DNA of 64,000 nucleotides from Nanobdellota archaeon (GTDB lineage Archaea > Nanobdellota > Nanobdellia > Woesearchaeales > GW2011-AR9), in NCBI GenBank assembly GCA_038044525.1, contig JBBSZV010000033.1:7131-71130 (forward strand), read 5' to 3'. Shown in pieces: positions 4,349 through 43,956 of the stretch. The position numbers and the translations under genes were made by a program. Each line of letters opens with the position of its first letter. Position 1 is the stretch's first letter. The notes under the pieces were generated by a model. It was not told the origin of the DNA. It worked only from the letters and a program-made list of their open reading frames with translations, and made no database searches.

Positions 4349-4906
4349 ATGGCAGCTACCGCAAGTTCTTCTTGGAAAGAACTGGATGGATATGTTAGTA
4401 AGTTAATCCAGGTCTTTCCGAATTTGCAGATCTGGAAAGATATTGAGCGGAAACCGATAACTGTTTCTTCAATAGATCATTTGATCAGTGATGGCCTGAA
4501 CTTGATAGAAGATTCTACCATTACCGTTTTTACCGGCGGAATCGTTATTGAAGAGGAAACAAAAAAGATGGTCATCTTGTTAAAAGCAGGACTTGATTCC
4601 TACAACCGTGATGTAACTCTTTTTCATGAATTAGCTCATCTTCATCATCCGATTTACTTAAGCAGAAGAAGTAATGAATTTGACGGTTTTGTTTCCTATG
4701 CTGAGGAAACTGCAAGAGAAGCGATTACAGAATGGCTGGGAAGAAAAGCGAGAGCTGATCCGGAATTATTACGGCATGCGGTTCTTTCTTTCGGTTTGGA
4801 AGCGCAGGTTTATGATAAATCCAGTTACCAAGCTTTTCAGAAAATAATAAGGGGCCAGCAATGTTTCCCCTTCATGGAACAAGAATATCCCGTCTTGATG
4901 GATTAA
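4349..4906 (+). CDS. Hypothetical protein with an HExxH motif. Possibly an ImmA/IrrE (DUF955)-like zinc metallopeptidase.
   Basis: The motif LFHELAHLHH resembles the ImmA/IrrE HELGHLLLH. There is no other support. Confidence 0.3.
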   Translation: MAATASSSWKELDGYVSKLIQVFPNLQIWKDIERKPITVSSIDHLISDGLNLIEDSTITVFTGGIVIEEETKKMVILLKAGLDSYNRDVTLFHELAHLHHPIYLSRRSNEFDGFVSYAEETAREAITEWLGRKARADPELLRHAVLSFGLEAQVYDKSSYQAFQKIIRGQQCFPFMEQEYPVLMD

Positions 4907-4955: not shown

Positions 4956-5924
4956 ATGAAGAAAATAGTGGTCATCGGCGGAGGGACCGGAAATTTCACC
5001 GTTCTCAGCGGGCTTAAGAAATATAACATCGACCTGAGCGCGGTAGTGTCCATGGCGGATGACGGAGGAAGCACCGGAATCCTTCGCGACGAATTAGGCG
5101 TTTTACCTCCCGGCGATGTGCGGCAGTGTCTCGTGGCATTATCAGATTCCAGCAGATTGATGAGAAGCCTGATGAATTATCGGTTTGAGAATGGAAGCTT
5201 GCAGGGGCACAGCTTCGGCAATCTGCTCCTGTCAGCGTTAGAGAAAGTCACCGGCAGCTTTGACCGGGCGGTGGAAGAGATGGGCCGCATCATGGTCATC
5301 AAGGGAAAAGTGATTCCGGTGACGACTAACAAAGTCCATCTGAAAATGATCCTCCGCAGCAATAAGATGCTGGAAGGAGAGCATGAGATAGATGTGTCGT
5401 CGGAGATCGACCGTGGTTTCCAGAGCATTTATCTGGAGCCGTTTCCGCAGGCGAACACCAGGGCCATAGACCAAATAATGACTGCTGACCTGGTGGTGTT
5501 AAGTCCGGGAGATCTTTATACGTCGTTAATCCCGAATCTGCTGGTCGACGGTGTAAGCAAGGCCTTGCGCGAGACTGGCGCGAAGAAAGCATTGGTGGTC
5601 AATCTGATGAACAAGCACGGGCATACCACTAATTTCAAAGCCGGAGATTACCTGCGCGAGATCAAACGTTTTGTGGGGAAGGACGTTTTTGATTACATCA
5701 TCGTCAATAACAGCAAACTGCCGGAAGAATTAATCCAGCTATACGAGACGGAAGGAGATCCGGTGGAAAATGATTTAATCCCTGATCCGCGGGTTATTGC
5801 AGCGGATGTTTTAAGCAACGAAACAGTCCCGTTGCAGAAAACTGACACCCTGAAACGGAGCCTGATCCGCCACGATTCCCGCAAATTAGCTGAGGAGTTG
5901 ATGAAAATTGTTGATAGTTTTTGA
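4956..5924 (+). CDS. CofD/YvcK-family protein (UPF0052; 2-phospho-L-lactate transferase-like or gluconeogenesis factor-like).
   Basis: The N-terminus reads KIVVIGGGTGNFTVLSGLK followed by MADDGGSTGILRDELGVLPPGDVRQCLVALS. This GGGTG...DDGGS signature is characteristic of the CofD/YvcK family. Confidence 0.7.
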   Translation: MKKIVVIGGGTGNFTVLSGLKKYNIDLSAVVSMADDGGSTGILRDELGVLPPGDVRQCLVALSDSSRLMRSLMNYRFENGSLQGHSFGNLLLSALEKVTGSFDRAVEEMGRIMVIKGKVIPVTTNKVHLKMILRSNKMLEGEHEIDVSSEIDRGFQSIYLEPFPQANTRAIDQIMTADLVVLSPGDLYTSLIPNLLVDGVSKALRETGAKKALVVNLMNKHGHTTNFKAGDYLREIKRFVGKDVFDYIIVNNSKLPEELIQLYETEGDPVENDLIPDPRVIAADVLSNETVPLQKTDTLKRSLIRHDSRKLAEELMKIVDSF

Positions 5925-6378: not shown

Positions 6379-7064
6379 AAGCAGTCATTCTGGCGGCGGG
6401 AAAAGGATTGCGGATGCTTCCCTTGACCAGGGATAAGCCGAAAACGTTGATAGAAATAAATGGGAAACCTTTTTTGTCTTACCTATTAGAGCATTTGCAG
6501 AAGGCCGGGATCACCGAGACGGCTATCGTGGCAGGATATAAAATAGAAAAAATTGCCGAGTTTGCTAAAAAACATGATGCGGCTATCACTCTCATCGAAC
6601 AGCAGCAGCTGCGAGGCACGGGAGATGCGGTGATGAAAGCAAAGGAATTTGTCGACGGAGAGGATTTCATAATGCTGGGCGGCGATAATCTTTTCTCTCC
6701 GGCAGACCTGCAGGCGATACAGAAAGATGATGAATATTGTTATGTGGGCGGATGGAAAACGGCCAACCCGGAAAAGTACGGGGTCATGGTCTGCACGGGA
6801 AATGTCCTTTTGAAGATCATTGAAAAGCCCAAAACTTTTGTCGGCGACCTGATCAATGCCGGGCTGTATAAATTCACGCCGGACATATTTGAAGCGTTAG
6901 GAAAGATCGGGCTTTCAGAGCGCGGAGAGCTGGAACTGACTGATGCGATTTCCCTGCTGGCGGAAAGCCGGAAAGTGAAAGTGATGATGCTGCAGGATTA
7001 CTGGCTGGATCTGGGAACGAAAGAAGACGTGCCTAAAGTGGAAGCGTTTTTGAAGAAGTTATAA
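6375..7064 (+). CDS. Sugar-phosphate nucleotidyltransferase (NTP_transferase family, RmlA/GlmU-N-like).
   Basis: MKAVILAAGKGLRMLPLTRDKPKTLIEINGKPFLSYLLE is the canonical G-x-G-x-R-L nucleotidyltransferase signature. ATGA overlap with the HAD gene. Confidence 0.65.
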   Translation: MKAVILAAGKGLRMLPLTRDKPKTLIEINGKPFLSYLLEHLQKAGITETAIVAGYKIEKIAEFAKKHDAAITLIEQQQLRGTGDAVMKAKEFVDGEDFIMLGGDNLFSPADLQAIQKDDEYCYVGGWKTANPEKYGVMVCTGNVLLKIIEKPKTFVGDLINAGLYKFTPDIFEALGKIGLSERGELELTDAISLLAESRKVKVMMLQDYWLDLGTKEDVPKVEAFLKKL

Positions 7065-7188
7065 GGTAAAAGATATCTTTATAAGCAAAATAGTCTTTTC
7101 TGTAGTAAAAAGAGGTGTTAATGGTGTTGATTATAGTGTTAAACAATAGAAATCTTAATAAAATCCTCTCTTTCTGCCCTATCTGGGG

Positions 7189-7437
7189 GTGCAAGATTTG
7201 AAATTGGGTAATATAACCTTCAGTAAGAACGTTCGAGAAGACATATTAGAGCTATTTGGTAAAAGTTTAGACGAAGAAGGATTTATTGTAGAAAAAGACG
7301 ATACTTCTCAGCGGGTTCTTACTCCAAAAGGTGAAGAAATCCATATCGATGAATGGGCCGGCGTAGTTAAAGGTTCTGAAGCTTTTGTTAAGAATGACGC
7401 TCTTTCTTTAATTGAACTTGCAAAAAAATTAGAATGA
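7189..7437 (+). CDS. Small hypothetical protein (82 aa, GTG start). First gene of an AT-rich island.
   Basis: An ORF in a low-GC segment. Its stop overlaps the next start (ATGA). Confidence 0.35.
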   Translation: MQDLKLGNITFSKNVREDILELFGKSLDEEGFIVEKDDTSQRVLTPKGEEIHIDEWAGVVKGSEAFVKNDALSLIELAKKLE

Positions 7438-8252
7438 ATCTTATTCTTGATAAGTTGAAAACAATATTTCACGGTAAGTTTGATGATATTTTATCAAATA
7501 ATAACATCAAGATTTTCGATTTTTCTAAAAATACAACGAATATACTTGAAATTAAAGATGGCCAGAAACTTGATATTGATTTAGGTAAAGCCAATGCAGA
7601 AGAAAAAAAATTAGTAAAAGAAAGAATTATAGATTTAATGGTTCAAAGCGAAAATGGGGCATTTCTGTCTGCTGATTCCTTCCAAAAGACTAAAAAAATT
7701 AAGTCAAATCTTCCTACCGGAGAAGATGAGGAGCTATTAAAATTCTATAAAGATAAACTTAAACTTGAAATGTATAAAGCATTGGAAGCTTCTCTTGTCG
7801 TACGAAATGCTTTTAAAAAAGGTGAGGAAATAACTGATCTTAAAAAAGATATATCTAAACTTTACCCTACTTTTGGTAAAAATATTTGCAATTTAGTGAC
7901 TAGGGAATATTTTCATACTCACTTTAAAGATTTATACGATAGCATGATCGAAGATCAAGATTTTGATATTAATCTCTATCAAAGAAAAGTAGAAAAAATT
8001 GTTCAGTCTCTTCCTTATACAGTTTTCGTAACGAGATATAGGTCTTATGATGATCTAAGTGGTGAAGTGAGATTTAAACTTGAAAAATTAAATAAATATG
8101 GGGCCGGCAGATTATTACTCCACGGCTTAGGAAGGGAAAATGTCAGTGCTACTTTAAATCTCTTAGAAGAATACAAAGATGATAAAAGCATCACTATCCA
8201 AAAAGAATTAAATCCTGGAGGAACAATCATTACAGCAACTCTAATTTTCTGA
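7434..8252 (+). CDS. Hypothetical protein with a C-terminal Smr-like (small MutS-related) nuclease domain.
   Basis: The C-terminus reads ...GAGRLLLHGLGRENVSATLNLLEEY...SITIQKELNPGGTIITATLIF. This matches the Smr pattern LDLHGL...A...L...IItGkG...GG.G...v.L. The N-terminal 190 aa are unrecognised. Confidence 0.4.
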   Translation: MNLILDKLKTIFHGKFDDILSNNNIKIFDFSKNTTNILEIKDGQKLDIDLGKANAEEKKLVKERIIDLMVQSENGAFLSADSFQKTKKIKSNLPTGEDEELLKFYKDKLKLEMYKALEASLVVRNAFKKGEEITDLKKDISKLYPTFGKNICNLVTREYFHTHFKDLYDSMIEDQDFDINLYQRKVEKIVQSLPYTVFVTRYRSYDDLSGEVRFKLEKLNKYGAGRLLLHGLGRENVSATLNLLEEYKDDKSITIQKELNPGGTIITATLIF

Positions 8253-8291
8253 GAAACCGACCTAAAACTATATAAAATCAAACTTCTTTGT

Positions 8292-40660: not shown

Positions 40661-41506
40661 TCACTTCAATTGTAATGCTTGTATATATCTTCCTTTCTCA
40701 CAAATATGATCTCCATTACGTAGCATACAACCTAAGCAAGTGGACTGACCGGTTGGAACGTTATTCTGTGTTGGCTGCATCTTCATCCACATACCACCAG
40801 TTTTAGCGCAGACTTCTTTGAATGGCAGATCTGCGTAAGGGTCATTATTGCTAGTCACTATAACGTTTCCCGTTATTCCTGAACCAAGATTTCCTTTTAA
40901 TGCCAAAAATCCGAAAACAGCTATCAGAACGACCACTATCAATTTCCAAATTGTTGACTTCTTTACTGAAACATTGTTATTTTCCATATTAACCTCCTTT
41001 TGTGCAATATTGCACGTCTTTGTTGCTATTTTATTTGATAGATAAACTATTGATGCACCTAAAAGACCAATGCCGAGAAACCCCAATTCTAATCCTTTAA
41101 ATGGAAGCACCGCTAAGAATCCACCAAAGCCTAAGACGCTCAGTAATCCAATTGCACACGATGGACACGCGGGAGCTATCAAACTTATGAAGATACTTGA
41201 TGTTCCTGCCTTAAGACTTCCTTTAACTTGCCTTTTCACTAAAAAAATGGTCATTGTCGTGACAACACCAGCAAGAACTGACATTATAATGAGAAGTATG
41301 AAAGAAAGAGCAGTCATTGATGCGAGTGCTCCCTTAAGCAAGGAAAAAAACAGCGAGAAAGAAAAATCAGAAAAAAGTATGCGGTAATTGTTCACAAGTG
41401 TATTGAAAAGAAAAATTGCCAAAGCAACGCTGAAAGTAACTAAAAAGTATTTCTTAAAACTGTACACCTCTTTTAGTGCTTCCTGCACTTTATTTATGTA
41501 TTTCAT
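40661..41506 (-). CDS. Membrane protein with an intramembrane CxxC (APACPSCA) and a Cys-rich C-terminal soluble domain.
   Basis: 281 aa. An N-terminal TM bundle is followed by C-terminal CAKTGG...CLGCM...HICEKG. Confidence 0.4.
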   Translation of the reverse strand: MKYINKVQEALKEVYSFKKYFLVTFSVALAIFLFNTLVNNYRILFSDFSFSLFFSLLKGALASMTALSFILLIIMSVLAGVVTTMTIFLVKRQVKGSLKAGTSSIFISLIAPACPSCAIGLLSVLGFGGFLAVLPFKGLELGFLGIGLLGASIVYLSNKIATKTCNIAQKEVNMENNNVSVKKSTIWKLIVVVLIAVFGFLALKGNLGSGITGNVIVTSNNDPYADLPFKEVCAKTGGMWMKMQPTQNNVPTGQSTCLGCMLRNGDHICEKGRYIQALQLK

Positions 41507-41526
41507 TTTGAAAAAAAGAAAAAAAA

Positions 41527-42261
41527 TTAATTAAGCTCAGCATCAATGACCTGCTGGAAAACACTAAACGGTTGCGCTCCACTGATGAGTTTTCCATTGA
41601 TGATGAACCCCGGCGTTCCTGAAATTCCTGCTGCACTTCCATCAGCTAAATCTTTTCGAATTTCCTGCTTTTGCGCTGGATCGCTCAAACAGGCTTCCCA
41701 TTTAGCAACGTTTAAACTAAGTTCCTGAGCCCAACGTTTGTAATCAGCACTGCTCTTTCCTCCTGCTCCTCCATTGCTGAAGATTATGTCATGGTACTCA
41801 AAGTATTTTTCCTGTTCCCCAGCACAATTGGCGGCAATCGCAGCAGGTTCAGCCTGTTGATGGAAGCCTAATGGAAAGTCACGATAGACAAACTTCACTT
41901 TCCCAGTTTTAATGTACATACTCTCAATTTGTGATAATGTTTGCTGATAAAATCGTTCACAGAACGGACATTCATAATCACTAAATTCAATTATGGTGAC
42001 TGGTGCATCTTTTTCTCCCAAGAAAGGATCATCATCAGCAAGTGCTTTCATATCGGTTATTCCTGCACTTGGCGCTTGTGGTGCTCCTCCTAATGTGGGC
42101 GCCCCAACTGCACCCGTAGGAGAATTATTGCCTCTAAAGGCCATGAATGCTAATACTACAATTAAAACTATTGTAGTGACTTTCCAGAACATTGATTTAT
42201 TGATAGTTATACTATCACTCTTTTTTGCTTTTAGTTCTTGTTGCTCTTCGATTTTAACCAC
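41527..42261 (-). CDS. DsbA-family thioredoxin-fold thiol:disulfide oxidoreductase, membrane-anchored and exported.
   Basis: The TM anchor reads FWKVTTIVLIVVLAFMAF. The CxxC motif reads FSDYECPFCERF. The DsbA-like core reads VKFVYRDFPL...GTPGFIINGK. Confidence 0.65.
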   Translation of the reverse strand: MVKIEEQQELKAKKSDSITINKSMFWKVTTIVLIVVLAFMAFRGNNSPTGAVGAPTLGGAPQAPSAGITDMKALADDDPFLGEKDAPVTIIEFSDYECPFCERFYQQTLSQIESMYIKTGKVKFVYRDFPLGFHQQAEPAAIAANCAGEQEKYFEYHDIIFSNGGAGGKSSADYKRWAQELSLNVAKWEACLSDPAQKQEIRKDLADGSAAGISGTPGFIINGKLISGAQPFSVFQQVIDAELN

Positions 42262-42300
42262 CTCTGGCGTTTTTTAAATTGCTATTCTCAAACAATTCTG

Positions 42301-42321
42301 TTGTTTCATAGGATGAAACAA
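42301..42321. promoter_or_regulatory. Palindrome TTGTTTCATaggATGAAACAA in a divergent promoter region. Candidate operator.
   Basis: A 9-bp perfect inverted repeat with a 3-nt spacer lies between divergent starts at 42261 and 42417. A TTGTTTC half-site is repeated at about 42364. Confidence 0.4.
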
Positions 42322-42416
42322 TATATAAATGGTTTTGAAACGTCCAAAATTAAGCCGAATTGTTGTTTCGTCAGGTGTAGCAATATTTAAATAAGGGTTG
42401 ATTCTGCTGACTATTT

Positions 42417-42917
42417 ATGGATGGACGCTCAGTTAAGTTATATAAATACATCAGCCTTGGATTTTCAGCAATAATCATCGGTCTTGCGATTCTTATCTAT
42501 GGGGTAATGTATATCCATCGTAATACAACCAGTAAAAATTCATTAATATTCTGGACAGTTGAAAATCATTTACCTATAACTATCAGTATGATCATACTTT
42601 CTGGATTTATGGGTTATATTTTATCAACCGTAACTTACAAACAAGTTACTAAGACTAAGAAAGAATCTCACAAATTATTAGAGATATTATTTCTCTTCCT
42701 AAACAGAGATGAGAAAGAGATTATTAATTCTCTTGTTCAGAATAATGGCATGATAGGACAAGCAGAGATTTCCCGTTTGCCCGGAATGGACCGAGTTAAA
42801 GCGTATCGCTCCCTCCAAAAGATGCAGGAAAAAAAACTGATAGATATAACTGCGCATGGAAAAATAAGAAAAGTATCGCTTAAAGACAACATATTAAACC
42901 TGCTTACTAGAGAATAA
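42417..42917 (+). CDS. Membrane-tethered winged-helix transcriptional regulator (two N-terminal TM helices plus a C-terminal wHTH).
   Basis: TM helices SLGFSAIIIGLAILIYGVMYI and ITISMIILSGFMGYILS. The C-terminus EKEIINSLVQNNGMIGQAEISRLPGMDRVKAYRSLQKMQEKKLI is MarR/TrmB-like. Confidence 0.45.
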   Translation: MDGRSVKLYKYISLGFSAIIIGLAILIYGVMYIHRNTTSKNSLIFWTVENHLPITISMIILSGFMGYILSTVTYKQVTKTKKESHKLLEILFLFLNRDEKEIINSLVQNNGMIGQAEISRLPGMDRVKAYRSLQKMQEKKLIDITAHGKIRKVSLKDNILNLLTRE

Positions 42918-42924
42918 ATTAGTC

Positions 42925-42933
42925 TGCCGTAAC
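42925..42933. repeat. Left copy of the 9-bp target-site duplication TGCCGTAAC.
   Basis: The identical 9-mer abuts both IS ends (42925-42933 and 43957-43965). Confidence 0.6.
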
Positions 42934-43956
42934 GGCTAATATGAAACCCTTGTAATTCTGATGAATATCAGAATTACTTGTTTTCCCGCTTCTAACATTC
43001 TGTCAATGTTATAGGCAACGATTCTACACATTGCTTCCACTTTTTGGTTCTTTACATCCTTTGATTTGATACTAAACCCAAACTTTCTTTTGAGAATACT
43101 GAAAGTAGTCTCAACCTTGTTCCTTTGAAGGTATTCTCCATAATCAAACACATCAAACGTCTCTTTTCTGTATCTTCCTTTTCTTCTATGCTTTGGCACA
43201 TCTAATCTTTTCTGGAGAATAAACGGGTATGCTCCCAGCTCTTCAAATACTATTTTGAAGAGCTTCTCGGCATCATATCCCCTATCTCCGTAAAAAGCTT
43301 CTGGTCGGTAATTTTTTGCCAATCTCCGGGTCATTGTATATGCATCAATCAGGTCGTGTCTTGCTTTTTTTCTAAGCTTAAATTGTAGGATAAAATAATG
43401 CTTTATATCGACGATAATACTTAGCTTCAAGAACGGACGTTTTTTGTATGCTTTTCCGATTCTTTTGCAGTAATGTGGACTGGCATTATCCAAACTAATG
43501 CCCGTTCCATCGATAGCAACCTTTTCAGGTTGCTCAATAAGTTTGCTAAACGCAGCCATAAGCTTATCGAAGATAGCAGTAGGAAGTCTCTTCGCAAACT
43601 TGATAAGAGTTGTATATTCAGGGAGCTTATTTAGCCCTAAATATGCCCTAAGCGTGATATTATCGCTTAAATCTTCAAGCAATTCCTTATAAGTAAACTT
43701 ACGGAATTGCTTGTATACCAGCAAAAAGAGATGCTGGTATTGGGTATAAAGCTTATTTGAGAACTTGGAGTTGTGAAGCATAAGCTCCGCTTCTCTGAAC
43801 AATTCATAGCAAAAATCAGCAAGTTTTTTAAATTTAGAAGTTATTATTTCCATTCGTAGTTCACCTCGTCGATAAAAGCGTCTTAAGACAACACTTTATC
43901 GACGTGAACTACTTTATATAACTTCTGAATCAAAGCCGGAGGGTTTCATATTAGCC
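42934..43956 (-). mobile_element. Complete IS element of about 1.0 kb (IS5/IS4-superfamily-like) with 16-bp perfect TIRs (GGCTAATATGAAACCC) and a 9-bp TSD.
   Basis: The TIRs are at 42934-42949 and 43941-43956 (reverse complement). A single DDE transposase ORF lies inside. The flanking 9-bp direct repeats indicate a recent insertion. Confidence 0.75.
42936..43853 (-). CDS. DDE transposase (IS5/IS4-like).
   Basis: Motifs AIDGTG, GDRGYD and NKVETTFSILKRKFG match the D-D-E / R-x3-E-x3-K signatures of the IS4/IS5 superfamily. 305 aa. Confidence 0.7.
   Translation of the reverse strand: MEIITSKFKKLADFCYELFREAELMLHNSKFSNKLYTQYQHLFLLVYKQFRKFTYKELLEDLSDNITLRAYLGLNKLPEYTTLIKFAKRLPTAIFDKLMAAFSKLIEQPEKVAIDGTGISLDNASPHYCKRIGKAYKKRPFLKLSIIVDIKHYFILQFKLRKKARHDLIDAYTMTRRLAKNYRPEAFYGDRGYDAEKLFKIVFEELGAYPFILQKRLDVPKHRRKGRYRKETFDVFDYGEYLQRNKVETTFSILKRKFGFSIKSKDVKNQKVEAMCRIVAYNIDRMLEAGKQVILIFIRITRVSY

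Follow-up and report, generated by a model that had tools for sequence, protein, structure and literature searches.

Within the 64-kb window analysed here, i.e. the whole 64,000-nt stretch of the Nanobdellota archaeon contig JBBSZV010000033.1, two overlapping genes and their leader form a compact cassette at 7065..8258 on the forward strand. The upstream gene (7198..7437, +) encodes an acidic protein of 79 amino acids (aa; pI 4.8), and the downstream gene (7434..8252, +) a protein of 272 aa with three predicted domains. The two open reading frames (ORFs) share an ATGA overlap at 7434-7437. The original prediction, made from the sequence alone, had recognised the coupled genes, their overlap and the 272-aa length of the large product correctly, and had assigned 82 aa to the small one, which corresponds to the ORF read from a GTG codon (7189-7437). 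Since homologs of the small protein are nearly all 79 aa long, and an independent gene caller arrives at the same length in the sister strain, the true start is TTG 7198 rather than GTG 7189. It is preceded by a Shine-Dalgarno (SD)-like motif, GGGGGTG (7185-7191, +), the start lying 13 nt after GGGGGTG.

The two genes behave as one unit. In all 22 non-redundant loci (22/22) the small gene lies directly 5' of the large gene, and in 17/22 the two share a 4-nt NTGA overlap; the pair has no other recurrent companion gene. The two proteins co-evolve: their pairwise distances are correlated (r = 0.86), with the small protein changing at 0.75 times the rate of the large one. The leader (7065..7197, +) is also conserved, aligning with those of L004 and L009 despite different contexts (other loci are denoted here by L numbers). 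At the left end of the cassette it contains a perfect 12-bp palindrome, AAAGATATCTTT (7069-7080, +), which could serve as an operator or a recombination site and is overlapped by a distal TATA-like box, CTTTATAAG (7077-7085, +). A proximal TATA-like box, CTTAATAAA (7154-7162, +), recurs across loci; 15/22 loci have a box of the CTTAATAAA type at -44 to -50, and 19/22 have an SD-like motif. Judging from these motifs, the leader seems to act as a promoter.

Several further features of the leader were observed. The part comprising the palindrome and the distal TATA-like box is conserved at L004 (~5533-5560) and L009 (~5624-5650), in unrelated contexts. A pyrimidine box, tCCTCTt (window 7163-7175; same position in the L001, L003 and L007 leaders), lies between the TATA-like box and the GGAGG-type SD; it is complementary to the SD and could, from its sequence, sequester it if transcribed. 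An upstream ORF of 23-51 aa, whose TGA stop overlaps the start of the small gene (ATGA/TTGA), is present at window 7121-7201, L001:5619-5768, L012:5610-5765, L014:2464-2619 and L015:5517-5762, and in the L004 and L022 leaders. It is probably not a gene, since most loci, among them the closest relative, L029, lack it or its start codon. A third conserved gene was rejected on similar grounds: the ~50-aa ORFs annotated upstream in some loci lack conservation and share sequence with the promoter-like box. An Rfam scan of the region on both strands gave no match.

The AT-richness for which this segment was first singled out is borne out by windowed base composition. With a GC content of 0.307, 7065-8291 is the lowest stretch in the 64 kb, the window mean being 0.433 (standard deviation 0.034, 1,064-nt windows). 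GC content at third codon positions (GC3) is 0.216 for the large gene and 0.237 for the small gene, the lowest of all values when compared with 0.472 ± 0.093 for 46 window genes. Because GC3 is independent of amino-acid composition, the AT-richness is not merely a matter of which residues the proteins contain; codon positions 1 and 2 of the pair are also GC-poor (0.33 vs 0.42). The window's other low-GC3 genes, which encode a DDE transposase, a PKD surface protein and a DsbA-like protein or are ORFans, do not include highly expressed housekeeping genes; low GC3 is a marker of accessory DNA in this genome. The deficit recurs in other, GC-richer hosts (L008, L013 and L029), and over the 22 loci the slope of pair GC3 against host GC3 is just 0.47.

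The limits and the movement of the cassette became apparent from comparison with relatives. Syntenic relatives were found through the AMP-phosphorylase gene downstream of the pair, and they keep the gene order S2 - CofD - HAD - NTP-transferase - AMP phosphorylase - DUF1003 - dUTPase. In L028, whose AMP phosphorylase is 79% identical, the NTP-transferase gene is followed by the AMP-phosphorylase gene after 131 bp, the site being empty with no remnant of the pair. The slot is occupied by a NUDIX gene and an 83-aa membrane protein in L027 (81%), and by other sequence again in L026 (87%). Homology to these relatives ends at ~7061 and restarts at 8259, where the AMP-phosphorylase promoter is conserved. 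Nucleotide similarity to L004 / L009, which carry the pair in unrelated contexts, covers 7066/7068 to 8256/8250, and L012, L014 and L015 are alignable just over the same ~1.23-1.28 kb. The anomalous segment exists as first described, with exact limits of 7065-8258 instead of 7081-8290, as defined by the synteny breaks and the cross-context similarity; a tract spanning it is identical in a close strain.

That strain, L030 (98%), carries the pair in the same slot, and the 1,223 nt at 7055-8277 show 0 differences from the window, whereas the flanks differ at 3.7-9.2% of nucleotides. About 53 differences would be expected over this length (P ~1e-23); outside it, identical runs between the window and L030 do not exceed 272 nt. 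A simple strain switch in assembly is unlikely because differences at 7046, 7049, 7050 and 7054 run up to the edge of the cassette. The closest homolog on a long contig, L029 (69%), occupies another slot, beside Polbeta/HEPN, NTP_transf_2 and Fic genes, where the pair has a GC3 of 0.15-0.17 vs 0.31-0.51 for its neighbours. Conserved synteny with housekeeping genes, which would have spoken for a resident pair, is not seen; the chromosomal slot is different in every genome. Three independent lines, i.e. the empty site, the same unit elsewhere and the identical tract, agree that the cassette was acquired recently in this lineage. The pair always moves as the same ~1.2-kb unit and has been transferred repeatedly as a self-contained two-gene cassette. 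The foreign origin initially suggested from base composition is thus strongly supported by these lines and by the GC3 anomaly.

The insertion site and other parts of the window show additional signs of accessory DNA. The NTP-transferase/AMP-phosphorylase slot (L027:7250-7944, L026:1-334, L028:7870-8000) is a hotspot with four states among close relatives, namely the cassette, the NUDIX gene with the 83-aa membrane protein, other sequence, or empty. In L026 it holds a perfect 14-bp inverted repeat, GTTGTAAATACCCC and GGGGTATTTACAAC separated by 35 nt, and a tiny Arg/Lys-rich ORF. A second low-GC3 stretch at window 40661-43853, comprising a DDE transposase (42936-43853), a DsbA-like thioredoxin (41527-42192) and ORFans, may be a further accessory or mobile region. 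A gene at window 4349-4906, 2.3 kb upstream, with a weak match to IrrE/ImmA-type M78 peptidases (E 1.3e-4) and a GC3 of 0.36, is probably resident and not part of the island, as a similar-sized gene lies at the same position in syntenic relatives.

The large-protein family is uniform in length (~265-285 aa). Eighty close homolog clusters (~270 aa) were found in Nanoarchaeota, Woesearchaeota and Pacearchaeota metagenome-assembled genomes (MAGs), and an exhaustive search raised the family to 456 clusters at 50% identity; in the genome scan it was confined to DPANN-type MAGs. Scans against Pfam, NCBIfam, PADLOC and PHROGs, with the single sequence and per member, gave nothing significant. 'prok_STING' matches in 7/134 members were dismissed as noise from a 24-residue helical stretch. 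The AlphaFold2 model (pLDDT 85) predicts an N-terminal small alpha/beta region (aa 1-75; 7434..7658, +), of moderate model confidence and with no structural or profile match, a helical middle domain (aa 76-192; 7659..8009, +), with conserved R124, K137, N150, N153, S/T156 and Y159 and no match in PDB or Pfam, and a C-terminal IF3-C-fold domain (8010..8249, +). The N-terminal ~190 aa, already reported as unrecognised, have no PDB, Pfam or structural match, full-length structural neighbours having been sought in the PDB and BFVD.

The small-protein family is broader than the cassette, because a divergent stand-alone paralog (hhalign E 1.2e-11) is encoded at L014:1909-2151, ~460 nt upstream of a regular pair. 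Two other candidates, a 79-aa HTH_45 gene in L003 and a divergent 79-aa ORF in L029, proved not to be paralogs.

In an alignment of 134 family members, down to 22% identity, the signature of the C-terminal domain of the large protein reads PFAVFV(S/N/H)R...K...KYGI..LNIHGIGxEN(V/I). Within the loop HGLGREN (aa 230-236; 8121..8141, +), the family signature of which is HGxGxxN, H230 is found in 133/134 sequences, G231 in 113/134 (Ala in 21), G233 in 126/134 and the Asn N236 in 132/134. The conserved polar set of the protein comprises R124, K137, N150, N153, S/T156, Y159, K215, Y222, H230 and N236; acidic residues are not conserved at any position of the protein, the end of strand 1 included. The HGxG loop is placed by hhalign against HGKG/HGHG of Smr, making it the same loop as the Smr HGxG motif. 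In Smr proteins, the loop between strand 2 and helix 2 carries HGxG (families 1 and 3) or TGxG (family 2), and H701 of the HGxG motif is important for the nuclease activity of the MutS2 Smr domain (PMC3200294). A small-x-Gly loop joining strand 2 to helix 2 unites the TusA-Alba-Smr assemblage, whose catalytically active members are reported to be marked by an Asp (LDxH/DxH) at the C-terminal end of strand 1 (10.1101/674358; PMC3200294). The Smr-like motif reported earlier, LLLHGLGRENV, is indeed present at aa 226-236, only in another register, corresponding to the beta2-alpha2 loop and not to the N-terminal LDLHG of Smr. The 'GG' before the last strand, taken at the time as part of the Smr signature, is not conserved.

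Whether the domain belongs to Smr or to Alba is less straightforward. It has the predicted IF3-C-like beta-alpha-beta-alpha-beta-beta fold common to both; in structural comparison Alba-like folds outscore Smr, and a phage Smr domain is among the matches. On the Smr side, the window protein gives no match to PF01713 at E<=10, the profile is matched by 2/134 members (best E 0.008), the family consensus reaches E 0.087 and 13.4 bits, below the gathering cut-off of 25.7 bits, and domain-only scans give noise only, although the sub-threshold matches are co-linear with the domain. On the Alba side, no Alba family was listed in scans of the 134 members, 52 C-terminal domains or the consensus, and in comparisons of family profiles with PDB sequences the only matches were designed repeat proteins and, marginally, Pop7 (E 0.31). 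The hhalign P values are 8.5e-4 to a four-sequence Smr profile, 7e-4 to a Pop7 fragment and 0.39 to Sso10b, a null result. The median pI is 8.2 (range 4.5-9.8) for the domain and 7.7 for the whole large protein. In its motif the domain resembles Smr and in its shape Alba, and it belongs to neither curated family. The C-terminus of the large protein represents a new branch of the TusA-Alba-Smr (IF3-C-fold) assemblage that is strongly conserved, has an invariant Smr-type HGxGxxN loop and lacks the strand-1 Asp. The proposed Smr nuclease domain is only partly supported: the HGxG loop and the fold agree with it, whereas a significant PF01713 match and the strand-1 Asp are absent. We found no description of the large-protein family in the literature searched, and nothing relevant on Smr in archaeal toxin contexts; a 2024 survey of Alba, with 13 subgroups, mentions no DPANN multi-domain form (PMC11621453).

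By analogy with known two-gene modules, we read the pair as a toxin-antitoxin (TA)-like or abortive-infection-type conflict module on a mobile DPANN cassette, a reading close to the one first suggested from the sequence, which we prefer and hold only as a tentative hypothesis. The acidic 79-aa protein would bind the 272-aa protein and restrain or regulate it. The large protein would in turn bind RNA (less likely DNA) via its IF3-C-fold domain and the conserved Arg, Lys, Asn and Tyr residues of the helical domain, and might cleave RNA without a metal. The lack of conserved carboxylates speaks against metal-dependent cleavage, so that the options are cleavage without a metal or binding alone. 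With His, Lys, Arg, Tyr and Asn conserved and no carboxylate, the residue set appears to resemble that of metal-independent RNases. A selfish or defensive value would explain the spread of the cassette between genomes. The small partner is acidic across the family, a small gene placed upstream and coupled is the usual layout for an antitoxin, and the pair at times adjoins TA-type genes (Polbeta/HEPN, MazE and Fic). A more specific version, in which the pair represents a previously unrecognised family of archaeal conflict modules, carried as a minimal promoter-bearing 1.2-kb cassette that inserts precisely between genes, sometimes beside tRNA genes, without a recombinase of its own, is rather unlikely.

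Several observations weigh against a conflict module. No toxin, antitoxin or defence model of PADLOC, Pfam, NCBIfam or PHROGs matched, and the neighbours over 13 further loci are mostly housekeeping genes, with just two transposases and generic PADLOC matches. The small partner evolves slowly, unlike typical antitoxins; small partners are 49-54% identical where the large proteins share 26-32%. In the large protein the strand-1 Asp is absent, positions 198-204 having Asp or Glu in <=18/134 members and the aligned Asp position being Val/Ile in 129/134. As for mobility, there are no terminal repeats, target-site duplication or recombinase at or in 7065-8258, and the 64-kb window contains one cassette copy. 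An association with defence islands found no support in the neighbour census.

The main competing explanation is a non-toxic, nucleic-acid-binding accessory complex, in which a non-catalytic, Alba/Pop7-like C-terminal domain would make the pair an RNA chaperone, regulator or chromatin-associated factor that is dispensable and exchangeable. We consider it somewhat unlikely. The lack of any Alba Pfam family in the scans and the null alignment to the canonical Sso10b speak against it, as do the only mildly basic character of the domain and the invariant His-Gly-x-Gly-x-x-Asn, which suggests a specific site rather than generic binding; the signature of recent transfer and the patchy presence would also be unusual for a benign structural factor. 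Alternatively, the large protein could be a genuine endonuclease of the Smr family (PF01713) to which a new N-terminal domain has been fused. Beyond its sub-gathering score, the noise in domain-only scans and the higher scores of Alba-like folds, this is made quite improbable by the replacement of the strand-1 Asp/DxH with an invariant hydrophobic Val/Ile followed by Ser/Asn/His.

Two further explanations concern the provenance of the cassette. It might be cargo of a virus, plasmid or integrative element, serving that element in anti-defence, replication or partition, for example, with the chromosomal copies as remnants. This would accord with L023, the only locus with an integrase near the pair, where a tRNA-Thr (L023:12623-12697), at ~3.8 kb, abuts a phage-type integrase 2.5 kb from the pair, and the pair stands among ORFans. 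It would also accord with the tRNA genes 15 nt downstream of the large gene in L022 (L022:1145-1232) and 190 nt downstream in L005 (L005:7009-7094), and with L003, where a ParA-like gene is directly upstream of the pair and a DDE transposase nearby. However, L023 has no second attachment (att) site within 15 kb, in most loci, including the window, the cassette stands alone among housekeeping genes without other element genes, and viral sequences offered no counterpart: a pattern scan of IMG/VR found no relative, with patterns drawn from the close-family alignment because the wider one is too diverse for them, and a BFVD structure search gave no full-length match to the large protein. We regard this origin as improbable. 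A vertically inherited DPANN core pair, AT-rich through its Lys/Asn/Ile-rich composition, would agree with the 50-73% identity at which the pair is conserved, comparable to 70-87% for AMP phosphorylase, and with the low GC at codon positions 1 and 2. It is effectively refuted by the empty site and by zero divergence within the cassette where the strain flanks differ by 4-9%; the lowest GC3 among 46 genes and a slot that changes in every genome are likewise at odds with it.

Other observations at the surrounding loci may be recorded here. ARAGORN found no tRNA gene in the 64-kb window, although intron-containing or split archaeal tRNAs may be missed in the mode used. The tRNA-like stretches downstream of the pair in L004 (with a hairpin insertion), L009 and L029 were unconfirmed by ARAGORN or Rfam and were discarded. 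The EF-2 gene beside the pair in L001 (283-3066) and L002 (743-3526) has an intein (Pfam Intein_splicing in a 927-aa EF-G/EF-2).

The genomes of DPANN archaea are tiny, with few defence or addiction systems recognised in them and with accessory genes that are mostly unannotated. Against this background, the present family is widespread and tightly conserved (the 456 clusters described above), with unusually clean evidence of recent gene-level transfer. If the pair is a conflict module, it would introduce an effector of a new type, derived from the Smr/Alba fold, and would offer a tractable case of DPANN genes moving with no evident mobility gene; should it be a benign RNA-binding pair, the architecture would still be a new and fixed one for this fold. 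In either case, the HGxGxxN loop combined with the missing strand-1 Asp offers a natural test case for the residues that make the fold catalytic, a question left open by the Smr review.

Compared with Smr families 1 and 3 (the MutS2 C-terminus, SmrA/YdaL and SmrB; PF01713), the cassette domain shares the beta-alpha-beta-alpha-beta-beta IF3-C fold, predicted here, the HGxG in the beta2-alpha2 loop with its near-invariant His, the C-terminal position in a larger protein and weak co-linear profile matches. It differs in the lack of a significant profile match and of the strand-1 Asp/DxH, and in an extra invariant Asn three residues past the loop (HGxGxxN); the protein has another N-terminal architecture and an obligate small partner gene, and has been seen so far only in DPANN-type archaeal metagenomes. 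From the Alba superfamily, including Pop7/Rpp20 and Pop6/Rpp25 of RNase P/MRP (PF01918), the domain is set apart by the absence of an Alba profile match, by the invariant His and Asn that Alba lacks, by its only mildly basic character, and by its fusion to an unrelated sequence of ~190 aa; it also travels on a mobile cassette and is not a core chromatin or RNA protein. Unlike an integrative element or genomic island, the cassette has no recombinase, target-site duplication or terminal repeats. With type II TA modules there are differences as well, since neither protein is homologous to a known toxin or antitoxin family, the large protein consists of three domains in 272 aa, and the small protein is the more conserved of the two. 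Nevertheless, the cassette resembles type II TA and abortive-infection modules in having a small acidic upstream gene that overlaps a larger downstream gene by 4 nt under a putative promoter of its own, and in its patchy distribution, horizontal transfer and occasional TA-type neighbours.
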